Shown piece after piece: positions 20,577-46,397 of a DNA stretch of 64,000 nt. How positions within the stretch are numbered: position 1 is the first letter of the stretch; each line of letters begins with the position of its first letter. A model generated the notes under the pieces. That model was given only the letters and a program-made list of their open reading frames with translations. It was not told where the DNA came from and did not search any database. The stretch spans positions 103,028 through 167,027 of the forward strand of contig LCET01000001.1 in the NCBI GenBank assembly GCA_000995185.1, in the 5' to 3' direction. The position numbers and the translations under genes were made by a program. This DNA comes from Candidatus Woesebacteria bacterium GW2011_GWC1_42_9. GTDB taxonomy: Bacteria > Patescibacteriota > Microgenomatia > UBA8517.

Positions 20577-21412
20577 AAACATCAATTATTATCCCGACAT
20601 ATAATGAGGAGGGCTTCATAGAAAGCTGTTTGAAATCATTGGATAATCAATCTTTGCGTGATTTTGAAGTGATAGTTGTTGATGATGGGAGCATTGACAA
20701 GACGGAGAGCGTCTTGTCAAATTTACAATTTACAAATTTCAATTTACAAATACTTAGACAAAAACACCGAGGACCGGCTCTTGCCCGAAACTTAGGCGCC
20801 AAGAAGGCGCTGGGTGAAATACTCGTTTTTGTCGATGCTGATATGACTTTTGATAAAGATTTTGTTAAAAAATTGATCGCACCGATTATAGAAAATCAAA
20901 CAATCGGCACATTTAGCAAAGAGGAATACGTGGTTAATTGGAATAATCTTTGGGCGAGGTGTTGGAATATAAATAGTAATTTACCATCTAAAAAAAGGCT
21001 TCCTGGTAATTACCCAAATAAACAGAAAGTGTTTCGAGCGATCTTAAAAAAAGAATTTGATAGAGTAGGGGGGTTTGATAGGGGAGGGTACACCGATGAT
21101 TGGAGTTTGTCGGAGAAACTTGGCAAGATGGCCGTAAACGCGAAAGGAGCAAAGTTTTATCATAAAAATCCAGAAACTTTTGACGAGGTTTTTAGGCATT
21201 CTCGGTGGGTTGCTAAGCGCGGGTATAAACTTGGGATTTTTGGCTTTGTAGTTGCTTTAGTCAGACTTTCGCTTCCAGTGACGATCTTGGTTGGACTTTA
21301 TAAGTCCATTCGATTTAGGACTCCCCTATTTTTTATTTTCAAATTGGTTTATAACACGGGTGCAACTTTGGGAATTTTTGAGTACTTTTTGCTTAAAAAA
21401 GGAGAAAAATGA
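20573..21412 (+). CDS. GT2 family glycosyltransferase.
   Basis: SIIIPTYNEEGFIESCLKSL...FEVIVVDDGSIDKT and DAD. Contains a short heptamer repeat (see findings). Confidence 0.8.
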   Translation: MKTSIIIPTYNEEGFIESCLKSLDNQSLRDFEVIVVDDGSIDKTESVLSNLQFTNFNLQILRQKHRGPALARNLGAKKALGEILVFVDADMTFDKDFVKKLIAPIIENQTIGTFSKEEYVVNWNNLWARCWNINSNLPSKKRLPGNYPNKQKVFRAILKKEFDRVGGFDRGGYTDDWSLSEKLGKMAVNAKGAKFYHKNPETFDEVFRHSRWVAKRGYKLGIFGFVVALVRLSLPVTILVGLYKSIRFRTPLFFIFKLVYNTGATLGIFEYFLLKKGEK

Positions 21413-39311: not shown

Positions 39312-40409
39312 ATGAATACTAAATCTTTAAATACAAACTTACATAGAGCAAATAAAGCAAAGAAAGATGAGTTTTATACTCAGCTTATTGATATTGAAAA
39401 AGAACTGAAGCACTACAAAGACCAGTTTCGAGGCAAGGTGGTTTATTGCAATTGTGATGATCCATTTGAAAGTAATTTTTTCAAATATTTTGCCGCTAAT
39501 TTCAACGCCCTAAAACTTAAAAAGTTAATCACCACCAGTTATACAAAGTCGCCAGTTGCCGGAGGACAGTTGCCACTCTTTGAAGTCAAGGGCTTAAAAC
39601 CGAAAGGCAAAGAGCCGTTTATGATTGTACTCAATGAAGTGACAGATACCGATGCAGACGGCGCGGTGGGGCTTACTGATGTGAAGTGGCTCTTGAAAAA
39701 TGATGCCAATATCGCTACCTCACTCAAGGGTAACGGAGATTTTCGCAGCGAGGAGTGCATCAAACTTCTAAAAGAAGCAGATATTGTGGTAACCAACCCG
39801 CCATTTTCACTCTTTCGCGAATATGTGGCGCAGTTAGTCGAGTATAAGAAGAAATTTATAATTCTTGGCGACCAAAACGCAATTACATACAAAGAATTTT
39901 TTAAACTTATAAAAGAAAACAAGCTATGGCTTGGTTATGATAACGGTGGCACAAAATGGTTTCAAGTCCCAATGGATTACGATATACCAACAGAGTCAAG
40001 AAAGAAAATTGAGAATGGAGTGCAGTATTTTAGTATGGGGCGGATTATGTGGTTTACAAATTTAGACACCACAAAAAGACACGAGAAGCTGACTTTATAT
40101 AAAAAATATAGTCCGAAAGAATATCCAAAATATGACAATCATGATGCAATTGAAGTCTCTAGGGTTTTAGAAATTCCAATGGACTACAAGGGATTCATGG
40201 GTGTGCCAATTACATTTGTTGATAAATATAATCCTGATCAATTTGAGATCATTGGATTGCTTGCTGATAAGCGGGAAAAATCAGATGCACTTATACAAGG
40301 TATCCCTACTTATCTTGATGAACAGCATAAAAAATATGTAGGTGCTATTGTTAACGGAAAAGCAACTTATGCACGGATTATTATTAAAAATAAGAAAGTA
40401 AAAAAATAA
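39312..40409 (+). CDS. N6-adenine DNA methyltransferase, EcoRI-methylase-like family.
   Basis: KDEFYTQLIDIEKEL..Y...FRGKVVYCNCDDPFESNFFKYF and motif IV VVTNPPFSLFREY (the NPPF catalytic tetrapeptide). Confidence 0.65.
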   Translation: MNTKSLNTNLHRANKAKKDEFYTQLIDIEKELKHYKDQFRGKVVYCNCDDPFESNFFKYFAANFNALKLKKLITTSYTKSPVAGGQLPLFEVKGLKPKGKEPFMIVLNEVTDTDADGAVGLTDVKWLLKNDANIATSLKGNGDFRSEECIKLLKEADIVVTNPPFSLFREYVAQLVEYKKKFIILGDQNAITYKEFFKLIKENKLWLGYDNGGTKWFQVPMDYDIPTESRKKIENGVQYFSMGRIMWFTNLDTTKRHEKLTLYKKYSPKEYPKYDNHDAIEVSRVLEIPMDYKGFMGVPITFVDKYNPDQFEIIGLLADKREKSDALIQGIPTYLDEQHKKYVGAIVNGKATYARIIIKNKKVKK

Positions 40410-40410
40410 T

Positions 40411-41517
40411 ATGAAAATTGATCTAAACAAAATACCAATTCACGAAGTGATAGTCGGCTACAGAGATAGCGCCGAGGAGGGCGTGGTGGCTTATGGTGGC
40501 AAACTTGATATTCGTCCAAAATATCAGCGTGAGTTTGTATACAAGGAAAAGCAACGCAACGCAGTGATAGAGACTATAAATAACAATTTTCCTCTTAACG
40601 TGATGTACTGGATGATTAGAGAAGATGGCGGCTATGAAGTACTGGACGGCCAACAGCGCACCATCAGCATTGGGCAGTATGTTACGGGTGATTTTTCGCT
40701 GAACGACCGCTTTTTTCATAATCTGACCAAAGAGGAGCAGGATAAAATTTTGGATTATGAGCTTATGATTTACTTCTGCGAGGGAACGGACAAAGAACGG
40801 TTGGATTGGTTTAGAATTATCAACATCGCCGGAGAAAAATTGACCGATCAAGAAATACGCAACGCAGTTTATACCGGCCCGTGGCTTTCTGACGCGAAAA
40901 TCAAATTTAGTAAATCAAATTGTGCGGCGTATCTCTTGGCAAACGACGGCGGACAATTAGTTAGTGGTTCGCCAATTCGCCAAGAGTATTTGGAAACAGT
41001 ACTTTCGTGGATTAACGATGGCAAGATAGAAGATTATATGGCCAAACATCAGCATGATGAAAACGCCGATGAGCTATGGCAGTATTTTCAAGATGTGATA
41101 GTCTGGGTACGAATAATTTTTACGAATTATCGCCGAGAGATGAGCAATGTGCCGTGGGGAGTTTTGTATAACCAATTCAAAGATAAAAAATTTGATTCAA
41201 AAAAACTGGAAAAAGAAATAACCGAGTTGATGCAAGACGAAGATGTGACCAAAAAGTCCGGTATTTACGAATATGTTTTAACTAGAAATGAAAAATTTTT
41301 AAACATCCGCGCTTTCACCGACAAAATGAAACGAGAAGCGTATGAGAGACAAAAAGGCGTTTGTCCGCACTGCAAAGGCGAGAACAAGAAAAAGAAATGG
41401 GAAATTAAGGAAATGGAAGCCGACCACATCAAGCCATGGCATGAAGGCGGAAAAACGACAGTAGAGAATTGCCAGATGTTGTGCCAAGACGATAATAGAA
41501 AAAAATCAGGAAAATAA
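40411..41517 (+). CDS. DUF262 (ParB/Srx-like, GmrS-type) domain protein with a C-terminal HNH nuclease.
   Basis: VLDGQQRTISIGQY (the DGQQR motif of DUF262). C-terminus CPHCKG...ADHIKPWHEGGKTTVENCQMLCQDDNRKK (HNH with CxxC...C..C Zn ligands). A 1-nt gap to the upstream MTase suggests translational coupling. Confidence 0.7.
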   Translation: MKIDLNKIPIHEVIVGYRDSAEEGVVAYGGKLDIRPKYQREFVYKEKQRNAVIETINNNFPLNVMYWMIREDGGYEVLDGQQRTISIGQYVTGDFSLNDRFFHNLTKEEQDKILDYELMIYFCEGTDKERLDWFRIINIAGEKLTDQEIRNAVYTGPWLSDAKIKFSKSNCAAYLLANDGGQLVSGSPIRQEYLETVLSWINDGKIEDYMAKHQHDENADELWQYFQDVIVWVRIIFTNYRREMSNVPWGVLYNQFKDKKFDSKKLEKEITELMQDEDVTKKSGIYEYVLTRNEKFLNIRAFTDKMKREAYERQKGVCPHCKGENKKKKWEIKEMEADHIKPWHEGGKTTVENCQMLCQDDNRKKSGK

Positions 41518-41551
41518 AATGATAGGTGCGCCGGCTTCACTGGTATGAGAT

Positions 41552-43018
41552 TTGCTGAGAATAAATAGTATGAAAATTAGTCAAATCTACAAATTAAATA
41601 AAACTCAGCATGAATTAGATTTTGTTGACATAGATCCCTCAAAAGACAAAGCAGTTTTTCTTGACCCCTTCTTTATTTCTACTAGACCTCAACCGTGGTG
41701 TATAGATGTAAGTAGAACAATAAAAAGTTTTTTTCAACACGCGATTGACCTTATTAAATCAGATGAGGTTGATAAAGCTCGTGCTCTTTTTGTTCATTTA
41801 AACGAACCGAATGAAATATGTTTAGGTTTATCGAGATCCAAACCTCAAGGTAGGGGTGCCGGCAATGATGATTCAAGACGCATATATGAAAGTATTTTGG
41901 AGAGTAAGGCAGTTCAAACTGGGTTAGTAGAAGATTTGGAAGATACGGCTATTTTTATTGATCGGATAGCTAGAGATAAGGTATCTGATATGACAACTAA
42001 CATAATTAGGAAACATCTTGTTGGTTACACTAAATCACAGTGCGAATTGTGGAATATTCCTTTGACCAGCGATGTACCATCTGGATTTTTTTGGGATCCA
42101 GCAAATAAAAGATGGGAAATTGTGCACACCGACAGATTAGTCGTAAGAAACAAACCCTTATTGCTAGTTCCAAAAATATCAGTTTCTTTCCATAAAGAAT
42201 ATATTGATCAAAAATATTATCAGCACTTCGCCTTAAATTATTTACAGGGTGAGCATTTAGCAAAAGATAGCAGTTTGGTGCGTGAAAGAACATTAAAGGA
42301 TGGTTCAAAACATAGATATGTAACAAAAAAAGATATAAAAGAGAAGGAAGCTCCTTTTTCTAAAGAATTTTTGCGTGAGTTTACAAAAAGTCATCCTGAA
42401 GTTTTTAAAAATTTCAGAAGTAGTAAAGCTCAATCCGTTCAACCAATCGGAAATAAAGATCTGGAAGATATTGATGTTGGCGCTTTAGTCGATTACTTGA
42501 TTAACTTACTTAATTCCTTGACTGCGGGTGGGGACAACGCAAGCGCATATCATAAATTGATCATCGGAGTACTAGAATTTATTTTCTACCCATCATTAAA
42601 TAATCCAGTCAAAGAGAAAGAAATAAACGACGGCAGAAAGCGAATTGACATAACTTTCGACAATTCAGCAAATGATGGATTTTTTTACACTCTCCACAAT
42701 CTCCATCAAATTACTTCAAGATATATTTTTGTTGAGTGCAAAAATTATTCGGAAGATCCAAAAAATCCAGAAATTGATCAGTTGGCCGGTAGATTTTCGG
42801 TTAATACAAGTAAATTCGGCTTTTTGGTTTGCAGATTGATAAGTGATAAAAATTTATTTCTGAAAAGATGCCAAGATATGTGGAAACAGAAAAATGAGTT
42901 GATTATCCCGTTGACCGATCTGGAAATCATCGCTATTTTAAAAAATATAAAATCAGGAGTGATACGAACAGAAGAACAATTACTCAATGATTTAAGAAGG
43001 AAGATAATTTTGTCGTAG
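41552..43018 (+). CDS. Putative restriction endonuclease. It has a C-terminal Mrr-cat-like PD-(D/E)xK domain and a large uncharacterised N-terminal domain.
   Basis: C-terminal GRKRIDITFDN...(27 aa)...IFVECKNY matches the Mrr_cat pattern G.IDh...(E/Q)xKxY. Confidence 0.5.
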   Translation: MLRINSMKISQIYKLNKTQHELDFVDIDPSKDKAVFLDPFFISTRPQPWCIDVSRTIKSFFQHAIDLIKSDEVDKARALFVHLNEPNEICLGLSRSKPQGRGAGNDDSRRIYESILESKAVQTGLVEDLEDTAIFIDRIARDKVSDMTTNIIRKHLVGYTKSQCELWNIPLTSDVPSGFFWDPANKRWEIVHTDRLVVRNKPLLLVPKISVSFHKEYIDQKYYQHFALNYLQGEHLAKDSSLVRERTLKDGSKHRYVTKKDIKEKEAPFSKEFLREFTKSHPEVFKNFRSSKAQSVQPIGNKDLEDIDVGALVDYLINLLNSLTAGGDNASAYHKLIIGVLEFIFYPSLNNPVKEKEINDGRKRIDITFDNSANDGFFYTLHNLHQITSRYIFVECKNYSEDPKNPEIDQLAGRFSVNTSKFGFLVCRLISDKNLFLKRCQDMWKQKNELIIPLTDLEIIAILKNIKSGVIRTEEQLLNDLRRKIILS

Positions 43019-43175
43019 GCGGAGACGGAAAAGCGAGGACAGGACACAAGCATGGTACAAAATTCAGAATGAAGCAAAATTGTCTCCCCATATTTTATAA
43101 AAAAACTGCTGTTATATCATGAGACTTGACCCCTAAGAAATTTAGGATTATGTTTAGGATGAGATACATTTTAAG

Positions 43176-43718
43176 ATGCCTTTTTCTACAGAAATTATTG
43201 GTCTTTTGCAGTATTTAGGTGTTAGTGCGGATAAAATAGCCCCATTTTTAATTTTTGGTTTTCTTTTGAATCTCTCCTTCTCAAAGAGACTCGGAATATT
43301 TTCAAAAGAGATCAACAAAATTGCCAACGCAATAGTTGAAATTCAAACTGTTTTAAGAAACAATCTTAAAGTTACGCTGCAGCAAAATATCAATCAATAT
43401 GGAATATCTGGAAGTCCAATAGTTCTTAAGAGTGAATTTCGGTCATTTATTACTAAGCCAAAACTTGACCAGCAGGTAGATGAAAAAATTGACGAACTTA
43501 TAGAATGGTTGAAAAAGCAAAACCCAAAAACTGGAATTGATGCCCAAAATAAAATTTCAGAGCTGGTGATATCACCAAAGATCAACGAATATTTAGACCT
43601 CACAAAATACAAACAATACCTATATACAAAAGGTAAAACGTCAAGAGATGCTTATGGGATTTTGGCCGTCTACCTCTTCGAGATATTGATTCCTATATTG
43701 TTTCCCTCAGGCAAATAA
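43176..43718 (+). CDS. Hypothetical protein (180 aa).
   Basis: ORF only. Hydrophobic N-terminal and C-terminal segments. No motif recognised. Confidence 0.4.
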   Translation: MPFSTEIIGLLQYLGVSADKIAPFLIFGFLLNLSFSKRLGIFSKEINKIANAIVEIQTVLRNNLKVTLQQNINQYGISGSPIVLKSEFRSFITKPKLDQQVDEKIDELIEWLKKQNPKTGIDAQNKISELVISPKINEYLDLTKYKQYLYTKGKTSRDAYGILAVYLFEILIPILFPSGK

Positions 43719-43742
43719 CAAATAATATCAAACTGCTCAAAT

Positions 43743-43832
43743 TTGACCCGTTTTGACACATTAATTTAGGGTTGACAACATAATCATGTTGTCCATAGTA
43801 GTTAGCAAGCAGTCTATTTGAGTGCTTGCTAA
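43743..43832 (+). promoter_or_regulatory. Promoter/operator region. It has three TTGAC(A/C) boxes, a palindrome GACAACAT-aatc-ATGTTGTC overlapping the TTGACA/CATAAT elements, and a second perfect 10-bp inverted repeat TTAGCAAGCA-(11 nt)-TGCTTGCTAA ending 1 nt before the SD.
   Basis: Read directly: TTGACC 43743, TTGACA 43753, TTGACA 43772. First inverted repeat (IR) 43773-43792. Second IR 43802-43832. SD GGAGGTGA at 43834. Confidence 0.5.
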
Positions 43833-43847
43833 TTGGAGGTGATTAAA

Positions 43848-44102
43848 ATGGTAGATTTTAATAATTTAAAAATAGAGCCACATTTTAAGCTAAATTTTGG
43901 TAAGTCCGGGAAAAACGGAAATGGTGGAGATGGGGGATCAATATTTATTTTCACTGAAAAATTAGCAGGGGATGGGAAATTCCTTGCTCATGGAGGTAGG
44001 GGAAAACATGGAGGAAAAGGAGGGAATATAAAAATTATTGCAAAAAATAATGATTTCAAGGGCGAAGTTTCAGTAAAAGGAGGTGATTCCTATGGAAAGT
44101 AA
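43848..44102 (+). CDS. Small glycine/lysine-rich protein (84 aa).
   Basis: ATG 43848 with SD GGAGGTGA 6 nt upstream. The in-frame TTG at 43833 is the ORF-track start. Sequence GKSGKNGNGGDGGSIFIF...GGRGKHGGKGGNIKII...KGGDSYGK. Confidence 0.5.
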   Translation: MVDFNNLKIEPHFKLNFGKSGKNGNGGDGGSIFIFTEKLAGDGKFLAHGGRGKHGGKGGNIKIIAKNNDFKGEVSVKGGDSYGK

Positions 44103-44382
44103 GCAACATAAACAAATCGCAAACAAAATTGCCAAAATTAAGGGCTCCGAATACCATTCGGATAAAGGGATAGATATTCGTACCAGAACTCAAGCAATAG
44201 AAGTAGAGGTTGATTCAAAAGCCTTTGGACACGCAAAACAACAATTGGCTGGATCGACACGAGCACCTTATATTGCCGTGCCTAACGAACTCGTCAAAGA
44301 TGCTCTAGTGTCAACACAAAATACTAGATTTGGAGTTATGAATGAGAGAGCAAAAATTTATAAATCAGGTCGGCGAAGATAG
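44092..44382 (+). CDS. Small protein (96 aa), possibly a minimal PD-(D/E)xK (YraN-like) fold. It is translationally coupled to the upstream gene.
   Basis: ATG 44092 with an identical SD GGAGGTGA 8 nt upstream, lying inside the 3' end of the previous gene. KGIDIRTRTQAIEVEVDSKA resembles a D...ExDxK core. The ORF-track start is GTG 44083. Confidence 0.45.
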   Translation: MESKQHKQIANKIAKIKGSEYHSDKGIDIRTRTQAIEVEVDSKAFGHAKQQLAGSTRAPYIAVPNELVKDALVSTQNTRFGVMNERAKIYKSGRRR

Positions 44383-44403
44383 AAAATATATATAGATTTG
44401 GAT

Positions 44404-44434
44404 TTTGTGGCCCCGCAAAAAATCATTTTTTTTG
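44404..44434 (+). terminator. Probable intrinsic terminator after the two-gene module.
   Basis: TTTTGTG-gccc-CGCAAAA hairpin (one G.U pair), followed by a T8 run. Confidence 0.4.
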
Positions 44435-44458
44435 ACCAAACTAAAAGAAAGGATATGA

Positions 44459-45754
44459 TTGGGAGGAATGGTTAACTTTTTTGAAAAACAGTTTGATAAT
44501 TTAGCAAAAAAGATTCAACTGCGTTGGAAAAATCTTATTTTAGGGTTAAAATCTTATTTCAAAAAATTGATTTTTCCTCTGTATCTTTTCCCGATTAAGC
44601 TTGTTACTTATACCGCTTATTACTTGGTCAAGTTTTTAATCAAGTTTATTTTTGCTTTCATCAGCCTTATTTTTGAAACAATTATTTTTCCCTTCAAAAG
44701 TCTTAAAAACTTTTTAAAGTCAATTTTTATTCTTGGTATTTTTATATACCTTTTAGCCTCTGTTTTTGTAATTGCTGATTATTTAACAAACCAGTACGGC
44801 TATATCGGCAAATTCCTTTGTTCTTTTGGAGTGAGAGATAAAATGGTAAATTCTGTTGTTCGTGTCGTCGGCGGATATTCTGAAGGCACAGGGTTTTTCA
44901 TAAGCCCCGACCAAGTGATTACCAACTTCCATGTTATTGCTGATGAGCCAAGCCCTAAAATTATTTTTCCCGATGGAAACTTTGTAACTCCGGTAAAAAT
45001 TCTTGGCAATAAAGATGTTGACTTGGCAGTCTTGTTTACAGAAGCAAAGTATCCGGATCTGGTTTTGCCTTTGCCGGATAGCATAGGCTTTAAGGAGGAC
45101 GAACCTCTTATTGCTACCGGCTACGCTTTGGGAACTGACTTAACTGGTAAGGCAACGAGCCTTAGGGGAAGGTTTATTGATTTTAGGAAATCCAAGCGAA
45201 TGCCCATTGGCTACATCCAAACTGACATCAGTTTGGTCAAGGGCATGAGCGGCGGCCCGCTGGTCGATCAATGCGGGAGTGTAGTTGGGATAAATACCAT
45301 TAGTCTTGCCGGATTATCCTTGTTTATCAACGCAGACTGGGCAAAAACTATGGTGCCGGATTTTACCGACCAGAATATTACTAAAATCGAGGTTGACCCT
45401 TCTCTCTCTCCGGAGGAAGCCGTGAGAGCTTTTTATACCTATCTTAAAGCCCGCCGGATGGAAGACGGCTTTAACTTATTGAGCGAAGAATATCTTAAAA
45501 AGACAAACTTTGAGGAATGGACCAACCGCTTCACTGATATTTTGGATGTTGATGTTATCAAATCCGAGAAATTTGAAAATACCAACGATATTGCTTTTGT
45601 AAAATTCTCAACTAAAAATTGGGTGGACGGGGAAGCAGAAGTACATTTTTACGAGGGTACTTGGCAAACGGTCAAAGAAGACGGGGTGTACAAAATGTTC
45701 AAAAGCAAAATTGTGGAAGTTGAAAACCCAGATTGGGATTGGTTCTATGAATAA
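44459..45754 (+). CDS. Membrane-anchored trypsin-like serine protease (S1/Trypsin_2) with an uncharacterised C-terminal domain.
   Basis: 3-4 N-terminal TM helices. Catalytic triad contexts TNFHVIAD (His), DVDLAVLF (Asp) and KGMSGGPLVD (Ser). Confidence 0.7.
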   Translation: MGGMVNFFEKQFDNLAKKIQLRWKNLILGLKSYFKKLIFPLYLFPIKLVTYTAYYLVKFLIKFIFAFISLIFETIIFPFKSLKNFLKSIFILGIFIYLLASVFVIADYLTNQYGYIGKFLCSFGVRDKMVNSVVRVVGGYSEGTGFFISPDQVITNFHVIADEPSPKIIFPDGNFVTPVKILGNKDVDLAVLFTEAKYPDLVLPLPDSIGFKEDEPLIATGYALGTDLTGKATSLRGRFIDFRKSKRMPIGYIQTDISLVKGMSGGPLVDQCGSVVGINTISLAGLSLFINADWAKTMVPDFTDQNITKIEVDPSLSPEEAVRAFYTYLKARRMEDGFNLLSEEYLKKTNFEEWTNRFTDILDVDVIKSEKFENTNDIAFVKFSTKNWVDGEAEVHFYEGTWQTVKEDGVYKMFKSKIVEVENPDWDWFYE

Positions 45755-46397
45755 GCTCTCGCCATCAGACTTCGCCTACCTCTATGAGGAGTGTAAGCTT
45801 TGCTACTACCTCAAAGTCAAGCACAAGATTTCCCAGCCTAGCATGCCCATGCCTGGCGTCTTTAGTGCGATAAATACCCGCCTCCAAACTCCGCTTGTCG
45901 GCAAAAATTTGCAAGTCATATCCAAAAGACTCCCCGAGGGTGAGGTTATAAAGCAAGAAGGATGGGTAGAGTCTAAAACTGTCCCTGGGACAAATGTTTA
46001 CCTCAAGGGTAAGTATGATTTGTTAGTTAAAAACATGGACGAGACTTATACCCTGGTCGACTTAAAGATCACCCAGCCGGATGAAGGCAAGATTGAAAAG
46101 TACCAGACCCAATTGTCGGCTTATAAATTTGCCTTGGAAAATCCCAAAACTGGCAAGCCGACCCAGATCGTGAGGACCGGATTACTTCTTTTTTATCCCG
46201 ACACAGTGACTTTTAAAGCGGGGAATGCGATATTTAAATTCCCGCCGACTTGGATGGAAGTGCCGATCGACGAAAGAGTTTTCTTTGGGTTTATGAAGGA
46301 AGTTAACGAGCTTTTAAATGGACCCACTCCAAAAGAAAGCAAAACTTGCAAATGGTGCCAGTACCGGCACATTGGGGATAAGTTAGCTCACTCGTGA
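45747..46397 (+). CDS. Cas4/RecB-like PD-(D/E)xK nuclease with four Cys that could form an Fe-S cluster (standalone, no CRISPR nearby).
   Basis: N-terminal ECKLCYY. GKYDLLV (motif I Asp). LVDLKI (DxK). QTQLSAYKFAL (QxxxY). C-terminal TCKWCQY. The ORF-track start is 45711; the Met at 45747 overlaps the protease stop by 8 nt. Confidence 0.6.
   Translation: MNKLSPSDFAYLYEECKLCYYLKVKHKISQPSMPMPGVFSAINTRLQTPLVGKNLQVISKRLPEGEVIKQEGWVESKTVPGTNVYLKGKYDLLVKNMDETYTLVDLKITQPDEGKIEKYQTQLSAYKFALENPKTGKPTQIVRTGLLLFYPDTVTFKAGNAIFKFPPTWMEVPIDERVFFGFMKEVNELLNGPTPKESKTCKWCQYRHIGDKLAHS

Follow-up and report, generated by a model that had tools for sequence, protein, structure and literature searches.

The described systems that come closest to the locus reported here are the HNH-SAVED effector Cap5 of cyclic-oligonucleotide-based antiphage signaling systems (CBASS), the elements of HET-s and the bacterial amyloid signaling sequences (BASS), type II toxin-antitoxin (TA) pairs, the two-partner secretion (TPS) and autotransporter adhesins, and the PD-(D/E)xK nuclease superfamily. 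We compare them with orfA and orfB, two small overlapping genes of Candidatus Woesebacteria bacterium GW2011_GWC1_42_9, a member of the Patescibacteria or candidate phyla radiation (CPR). The window is the whole stretch of DNA that was analyzed, 64,000 nt of contig LCET01000001.1 (positions 103,028 to 167,027), and related loci are cited by number (L001 and so on). Both genes are annotated as hypothetical (orfA, UV74_C0013G0286; orfB, UV74_C0013G0285). Our preferred reading, which we hold tentatively, is that orfA-orfB is a mobile, translationally coupled cassette in restriction-modification (RM) and defense islands of Patescibacteria, comprising a nuclease effector and an optional assembly or adaptor subunit. 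The genes and their Shine-Dalgarno (SD) sequences are as follows.

43848-44102, forward strand: orfA, encoding a basic Gly/Lys-rich protein of 84 aa (20 Gly, 13 Lys; pI 9.7)
44092-44382, forward strand: orfB, encoding a predicted minimal PD-(D/E)xK-fold protein of 96 aa (pI 10.1)
43835-43842, forward strand: SD GGAGGTGA of orfA, 5 nt upstream of its ATG; the start of homology among the cassette copies
44079-44086, forward strand: SD GGAGGTGA of orfB, 5 nt before its ATG, inside the codons for the conserved KGGDS end of orfA

An earlier note on this DNA had described the gene sizes, the 11-nt overlap and an identical SD before each gene, and we found all three as described. The sequence GGAGGTGA occurs four times in the window, where 1.1 copies are expected. 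It is the canonical Shine-Dalgarno, a perfect complement of the 3' end of 16S rRNA, and therefore the two copies mark strong ribosome-binding sites, not a special shared regulatory signal. Judged from their sequences, orfA and orfB are real genes under purifying selection and are arranged for translational coupling. The ratio of nonsynonymous to synonymous substitution rates (dN/dS) of orfA is 0.05-0.2 in all pairs (five homologues) but the near-identical window-L023 pair (0.43), and that of orfB is 0.11 in both informative pairs (window-L018 and L018-L023). For orfB, the window-L023 pair has 5 differences only, too few changes for its ratio of 1.14 to be informative; in the more distant pairs, dS has reached saturation. 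A programmed +1 frameshift that would fuse orfA to orfB was rejected: the +1 frame is open only from 44077, no slippery site precedes the TAA, and orfB homologues start independently at the same Met.

The pair occurs in three contexts: in the window, in L018/L019 (also L024) and in L023. In L018/L019, it lies between a divergent gene pair, encoding an XRE-type helix-turn-helix (HTH) protein and an M78 peptidase, and a metallophosphoesterase gene. In L023, it begins 18 nt after the gene of a 145-aa membrane protein and is followed by a protease gene that the window also has downstream. DNA homology among the copies begins at the SD of orfA (~43835), with wholly different upstream sequences in L018 and L023, and ends in L018 ~15 nt past the orfB stop codon, giving the cassette sharp borders on both sides. 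Therefore, the cassette consists of orfA and orfB, without the promoter, palindrome and hairpin region that precedes them in the window. The junction between the genes is conserved across the window, L018 and L023 apart from two substitutions. The two coupled tiny genes of the earlier note are real and arranged for coupling, with a junction kept in three copies; its label of a novel effector module is plausible, but a TA module is very unlikely.

We now turn to the protein encoded by orfB. A database search returned 85 clusters of 94-115 aa, nearly all of 94-99 aa, none of which contains a Pfam domain; all organism-named clusters come from Patescibacteria (Woesebacteria, Woykebacteria and Buchananbacteria). 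The invariant residues of the family alignment include H6, Y21, D28, E37, E39, Q51, Y60, P64 and K91, among which is the motif D28-x8-E37-x-E39. An AlphaFold2 model calculated from a 30-sequence alignment has a predicted local distance difference test (pLDDT) score of 94.9 and an alpha-beta-beta-beta-alpha-beta core, with the invariant Asp just before the second modeled strand and the Glu-x-Glu at the end of the third. The fold matches of the model, with scores in parentheses, are NgoMIV (7.5), NucS (7.0), N.BspD6I (6.9), XisH (6.4), PaqCI (6.2), HamA (5.9) and BamHI (5.2). The model strongly indicates that orfB has the PD-(D/E)xK, or restriction-endonuclease-like, core fold. BamHI uses such an arrangement of an Asp and a Glu-x-Glu (D94, E111 and E113), with Glu in place of Lys.

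At the level of sequence, orfB differs from the superfamily in the replacement of the canonical Lys by Glu and in having no significant match to a curated family. No meaningful match was found in Pfam, NCBIfam or PHROGs, and none in PADLOC-DB v2 at E <= 1. A profile search of the PDB gave irrelevant matches only (the best was V-ATPase subunit E, E = 0.0035), and fold matches in BFVD were weak (MmcB-like, E >= 0.004). The minimal PD-(D/E)xK core that the earlier note had proposed thus holds at the level of the modeled fold but not as a sequence match to a curated family, and with Glu for Lys. We conclude that orfB represents a new family, so far unannotated, of a known superfamily. The members used for comparison were BamHI/BglII-type active-site variants and minimal proteins such as Hjc, XisH and the DUF-type protein SPO1766 (PDB 3dnx); to our knowledge, no characterized PD-(D/E)xK member is as small as 96 aa, and we know of no restriction endonuclease of this size. 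From the modeled core and its conserved acidic residues, we infer that orfB is catalytically competent and would act as a nuclease. Scans of IMG/VR found no relatives of orfA or orfB, and a phage origin is unsupported by that collection.

The protein encoded by orfA leads to a larger family. Its first database search found five close relatives, and an exhaustive profile search with its module found 191 representatives at E <= 0.001. The module spans ~60 aa, with the consensus GGDGGxIFIxAxxIxGxGKIxADGGDGxxGGKGGxIxIxxxxNxFxGxISAKGGKS. The orfA model has two beta-solenoid rungs and a pLDDT of 65 overall and ~78 for residues 27-84; residues 1-26 form a conserved N-terminal extension, modeled at very low confidence (pLDDT < 50). 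We place moderate confidence in the prediction of orfA as a basic beta-solenoid module with two rungs. In structure, the model comes closest to the right-handed parallel beta-helix repeats of TPS and autotransporter adhesins (EtpA, HMW1 and FHA), and the module is likewise repeated in giant proteins. Curated family scans found no HTH, ribbon-helix-helix (RHH), AbrB or other DNA-binding signature in orfA. They gave nothing meaningful in Pfam, NCBIfam or PHROGs (best phrog_13336, E = 0.0012, and AgmC_N, E = 0.15) and nothing in PADLOC at E <= 1, in keeping with the earlier note's remark that the glycine-rich protein resembles no TA family. A PDB profile search found 8h2i 'P22', a viral protein rich in repeats, but solely by adding up weak repeat matches. 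Separately, the module profile (window 43920-44099) aligned without significance (E = 0.4) with repeats of the amyloid core of tau (GGxVxIV...GG...VEVKSEKLDFK), a resemblance of composition and periodicity only.

The module was found in four settings. It is repeated in giant proteins (89 of 150 best matches; 4-17 copies in proteins of 1,000-7,600 aa), it makes up orfA-like proteins of 80-90 aa together with the conserved N-terminal extension, it precedes a membrane helix, with or without a tRNA_anti-like OB domain, and it forms the C-terminus of proteins with nuclease domains. The nuclease fusions are these.

P0104, P0119 and P0150: classical HNH domain and module
P0123: HNH_3/ZorE-like domain and module
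P0130, P0138 and P0164: HNH domain like that of Cap5/SAVED-HNH proteins and module
P0133: Mrr_cat domain and module

We count at least eight independent fusions with four kinds of nuclease domain; one fusion cluster comes from Candidatus Shapirobacteria, which also belongs to the CPR. The HNH domains of P0130, P0138 and P0164 match the PADLOC models for CBASS SAVED-HNH and 'Effector endonuclease' proteins (E = 1e-15 to 1e-19). These models are 368-530 positions long and extend past the matched N-terminal ~110 positions, where the three proteins carry the module downstream of HNH. The window encodes a module and a nuclease-fold protein as two coupled genes. In contrast to Cap5, the module is no SAVED domain, nor does it have a recognized ligand-binding fold; the window locus lacks a cyclase or other sensor gene, the nuclease there is by prediction of the PD-(D/E)xK kind and not HNH, and the module gene comes first. 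No literature title or abstract that we found describes an association of this module with nucleases, and curated libraries hold no family for it; the association appears undescribed so far.

In the mechanism that we propose, orfA-orfB would move as one unit among RM and defense islands. Its catalytic part would be orfB, with the BamHI-like acidic triad D28...E37-x-E39, most likely as a Mg-dependent homo-oligomeric DNA nuclease or nickase. Its partner orfA would be a free-standing copy of the module that is elsewhere fused C-terminally to HNH, Cap5-like HNH and Mrr nucleases, or placed before membrane anchors; in the fusions, the module would occupy the slot where known effectors hold a sensor or oligomerization domain. 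The module may self-associate through its uncapped beta-edges and possibly bind DNA through its positive charge. By interacting with orfB, orfA could assemble, localize or gate the nuclease made from the same mRNA, and orfB may also be able to act without it; the pair would have a role in defense.

The account that competes best with a functional cassette, though we consider it somewhat unlikely, is that orfA and orfB are functionally unrelated accessory or selfish small genes that happen to adjoin one another in a rapidly changing island of a compact genome. Genome compaction would then account for the overlap and strong SDs, and recent common ancestry for the shared cassette; orfB would work by itself, for instance as a nicking, repair or homing-type nuclease associated with RM, and orfA would be a generic beta-helical structural protein. 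Same-strand overlaps between neighbors do look common among the window's mechanically listed open reading frames (for example, 17410/17420), although each is extended to its first possible start and the listed overlaps are upper bounds. The three copies of the pair are 84-96% identical in DNA, with orfB differing at 5-20 nt of 288, and because of this closeness the co-occurrence of the two genes could reflect recent common descent and not functional linkage.

Several further observations weigh against the preferred reading, and some of them also fit unrelated neighbors. Most orfB homologues occur without orfA (L001, L004 and L009-L017), and therefore the partnership is facultative. One of them, in L004, follows the same HTH and M78 genes as in L018 (53-54% identical) beside a Type ISP gene, and so the two loci share these flanking genes without and with orfA, respectively. 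Proteins of 98-105 aa are encoded directly before orfB homologues at L015:3702-3998 and L011:1295-1612 (L011-14), with weak matches to GIY-YIG (Pfam E ~0.006-0.007, below the gathering score), and orfB may swap between different small upstream partners. Conversely, orfA homologues occur without orfB (L007/8, L020-22 and L026-31), with entirely different neighbors: a Cys-rich membrane protein and a DUF1508 protein (L007/8), a 116-aa membrane protein (L022/26), an HNH gene and then a Cas4-like gene (L029/30), or no particular neighbor (L027 and L031). In L032, a gene for the module with a transmembrane segment lies among ribosomal genes, beside those for ribosomal protein L25 and release factor 1 (RF-1). 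Since most module matches are giant-protein repeats and some module genes lie among housekeeping genes, the module may be a generic structural element. In addition, the module is C-terminal in the nuclease fusions whereas its gene comes first in the window, and no curated nuclease family matches orfB, in which the canonical Lys is missing.

Against mere adjacency, the sharp borders in L018 mean that orfA and orfB moved or were kept together while both flanks changed. Moreover, the SD and start codon of orfB are embedded in conserved orfA codons, and the number and variety of the module-nuclease fusions are more than coincidence would give. The solenoid model and basic pI of orfA also favor the preferred reading, as do the surroundings: in five of seven distinct contexts, DNA methyltransferase or RM genes lie within 4 kb of orfB, the window's cassette is in a low-GC island with RM and PDC-M36A genes, and in L029/L030 a free orfA homologue precedes an HNH gene and a Cas4-like gene, a further nuclease neighbor. 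On this evidence, we retain the cassette of an effector and an optional subunit as the preferred reading.

Two observations on the neighbors of module genes stand on their own. A Cys-rich protein of ~92 aa, membrane-like by eye, precedes and overlaps the orfA homologues at L020:1678-1956 and L008:3733-4014; its two copies are 41% identical in loci that are otherwise different, which makes it a candidate for another conserved partner of the glycine-rich protein. In two unrelated loci (L020:670-1239 and L032:3737-4297), a Ser_hydrolase (PF06821) gene is close to module genes, which may be a coincidence or a conserved CPR neighborhood. A 92-aa protein encoded two genes upstream of orfA in L020 was considered by eye as a miniature PD-ExK protein (PD...EGEVK), a candidate unsupported by hhalign against the orfB family or by Pfam.

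The window's cassette lies in a low-GC island at 39312-44900 of the forward strand (GC content 0.32-0.40, versus 0.43-0.49 in its flanks), between recO and a Cas4-like gene followed by glyS, which encodes glycyl-tRNA synthetase. Its neighbors are the following.

39312-40409: EcoRI-type adenine methyltransferase
40411-41517: GmrSD_N (DUF262-type)/HNH restriction enzyme (PADLOC REase_II, E = 2.8e-137)
41552-43018: PDC-M36A-like protein of 488 aa, with a C-terminal D...ECK motif by eye
43176-43718: uncharacterized 180-aa protein
44459-45754: membrane-anchored trypsin-like protease, starting inside the island, with domain matches to the PADLOC RT-Protease and LmuA models
45711-46397: Cas4-like PDDEXK_1 protein, downstream of the island

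PADLOC matches among these neighbors cover REase_II, PDC-M36A, Cas4-like and protease domains. The Cas4-like protein is 42% identical to a homologue encoded at L029:3147-3839, two genes past a free orfA-like gene (L029/L030); the site upstream of the Cas4-like gene is a candidate for a recurrent hotspot of integration among CPR genomes.

This setting recalls a second account, which we judge improbable, in which orfB is a tiny nuclease subunit or accessory of the neighboring RM system (nicking, Vsr-like or specificity-less cleavage) and orfA a DNA-binding clamp. The window's orfB is near the EcoRI-type methyltransferase, and homologues follow a D12 methylase (L001), lie beside Type ISP genes (L004/L018), adjoin Type III-like methyltransferase and ResIII genes (L013), or accompany a C5-methylase and Vsr (L015); both orfA and orfB are basic. 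However, the RM partners differ in type from locus to locus and each has its own nuclease, which in the window is the GmrSD_N/HNH enzyme; L009/L010 have no RM gene within 4 kb of the orfB homologue; and the small size of orfB, noted above, argues against a restriction enzyme.

A third account concerns the module itself. The Gly/Lys-rich two-rung beta-solenoid might be a hitherto undescribed self-templating assembly domain of the CPR whose polymerization switches on nuclease or membrane effectors, analogous to HET-s/BASS and death-fold signaling, with free orfA as a nucleator or cap that controls orfB. HET-s has a two-repeat solenoid, and BASS motifs are shorter, with one copy at the end of an effector matched by another at the start of the NOD-like receptor (NLR) encoded next to it. 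Like these, orfA is short and has two repeats, which by prediction fold into a two-rung beta-solenoid, and the module is attached to cell-damaging effector domains and is also found on a separate small protein. The preprint of Dyrka et al. (bioRxiv 10.1101/2020.01.06.895854) places BASS motifs in multicellular Actinobacteria and Cyanobacteria. The present host differs in belonging to the CPR, and the locus in having neither an NLR nor a pair of motifs: no NLR-type gene is among the neighbors, and of the proteins examined in 37.8-46.4 kb, only orfA showed the module, in a single copy. Giant beta-helical proteins moreover contain the module as an ordinary repeat. We regard such a polymerizing switch as very improbable.

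The upstream region, which lies outside the cassette, gave rise to the remaining account. The spacer of 129 nt between the upstream 180-aa gene and orfA carries the TTGACM boxes and two inverted repeats, and two further elements lie 3' of orfB.

43743-43748 (TTGACC), 43753-43758 (TTGACA) and 43772-43777 (TTGACA), forward strand: three TTGACM hexamers, a local cluster at 43743-43777
43772-43799, forward strand: best sigma-70-like match, TTGACA-16-CATAGT, at 10 of 12 positions and joint best in 43000-45000; a consensus match only
43774-43793, no strand assigned: perfect 8-bp inverted repeat GACAACAT-aatc-ATGTTGTC, filling the -35/-10 spacer of the promoter-like site
43799-43835, forward strand: strong stem-loop, ending right at the orfA SD, which stays unpaired
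44401-44433, forward strand: weak AU-rich hairpin GATTTTGTG-6-CAAAAAATC and a run of eight T, 3' of orfB
44432-44459, forward strand: promoter-like site TTGACC-16-TATGAT, ahead of the protease gene

The three TTGAC(A/C) boxes reported by the earlier note are present, starting at 43743, 43753 and 43772; the 64 kb contain 80 TTGACM on both strands, so that three within 35 nt on one strand form a local cluster. From their sequence, they could be alternative -35 boxes or direct-repeat binding sites. The earlier note had also placed a palindrome over a TTGACA/CATAAT promoter. The 8-bp repeat is real, but CATAAT (43779-43784) begins 1 nt after TTGACA (43772-43777), and therefore these hexamers are no -35/-10 pair; the usable pair is TTGACA-16-CATAGT, from which the cassette is probably transcribed in the window genome. 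About 25 perfect 8-bp inverted repeats with a loop of <=12 nt are expected per 64 kb, and the copy at 43774-43793 alone is not significant. The second, perfect 10-bp repeat beside the SD likewise exists (43802-43811/43823-43832), with a loop of 11 nt and not 12, and extends to 13 nt (43802-43814/43820-43832) at 92% complementarity; about three such perfect 10-bp repeats with a loop of <=20 nt are expected in the window. As RNA, the stem-loop at 43799-43835 has a folding energy of -21.7 kcal/mol (z = -4.5; 0 of 200 shuffles as stable), and its sequence would suit either a hairpin of the 5' leader or a DNA operator. It might instead be a terminator of the upstream 180-aa gene, although the stem-loop lacks a T-run and comes after the promoter-like site. 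Only the local grouping of both repeats with the three boxes inside 90 nt is unusual, a suggestive pattern but one recognized post hoc.

Neither palindrome recurs elsewhere in the window or in the 31 loci L001-L031, the TTGACM cluster, 8-bp palindrome and stem-loop are not conserved in L018 or L023, and an Rfam scan of 43600-44500 found no family. The palindrome and leader hairpin would be lineage-specific control or stability elements. Downstream, the hairpin at 44401-44433 (-4.9 to -6.2 kcal/mol, no better than shuffles) is conserved in L023 and not in L018, and with its T8 run may be a weak terminator of the bicistron.

Two other palindromes were noted. A conserved TGTTGTA(A)-N5-7-(T)TACAACA at L004:3954-4000 and L018:2260-2320 sits between the divergent XRE-HTH/M78-peptidase pair and orfB (L004) or orfA-orfB (L018), and is probably the operator of the adjoining XRE-HTH regulator. 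Its equation with the window palindrome was rejected as coincidence, since the shared hexamer is everted and the center spacing is 12 versus 15 bp; no homologue of the L004/L018 HTH or M78 protein is encoded in the window. A perfect 11-bp inverted repeat TTGACAAGACG-5-CGTCTTGTCAA at 20694-20720 lies within a series of genes on one strand; apart from the one under study, no perfect short-loop palindrome in the window is longer.

The least probable account is the one that the earlier note had proposed, an autoregulated type II TA or abortive-infection (Abi) pair with orfA as antitoxin, orfB as nuclease toxin and an operator palindrome at the promoter: a pair of small genes that overlap, the second for a putative nuclease, a palindrome in the spacer of the promoter-like site, a second inverted repeat before the SD and an accessory, defense-island setting all resemble such modules, but the pairing is not conserved in either direction, even in the near-isogenic context of L004, the predicted beta-solenoid of orfA has no RHH, HTH or AbrB signature of a DNA-binding antitoxin, no TA or Abi family matched in Pfam, NCBIfam or PADLOC, and the palindromes, on whose conservation in homologous loci that note had staked its case beforehand, are absent from L018 and L023.

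CPR genomes contain many tiny unannotated genes, and their defense repertoire is poorly known. If orfA and orfB were unrelated neighbors, the locus would be an ordinary hypothetical gene pair in a variable island. If orfB is active, it would be among the smallest restriction-fold nucleases and define a new family, confined to the CPR, that accompanies RM systems. Of greater interest is the glycine-rich module: the same ~60-aa element recurs on nuclease domains of four kinds and on membrane anchors, a distribution that points to a new regulatory or assembly domain for the effectors of conflict systems.

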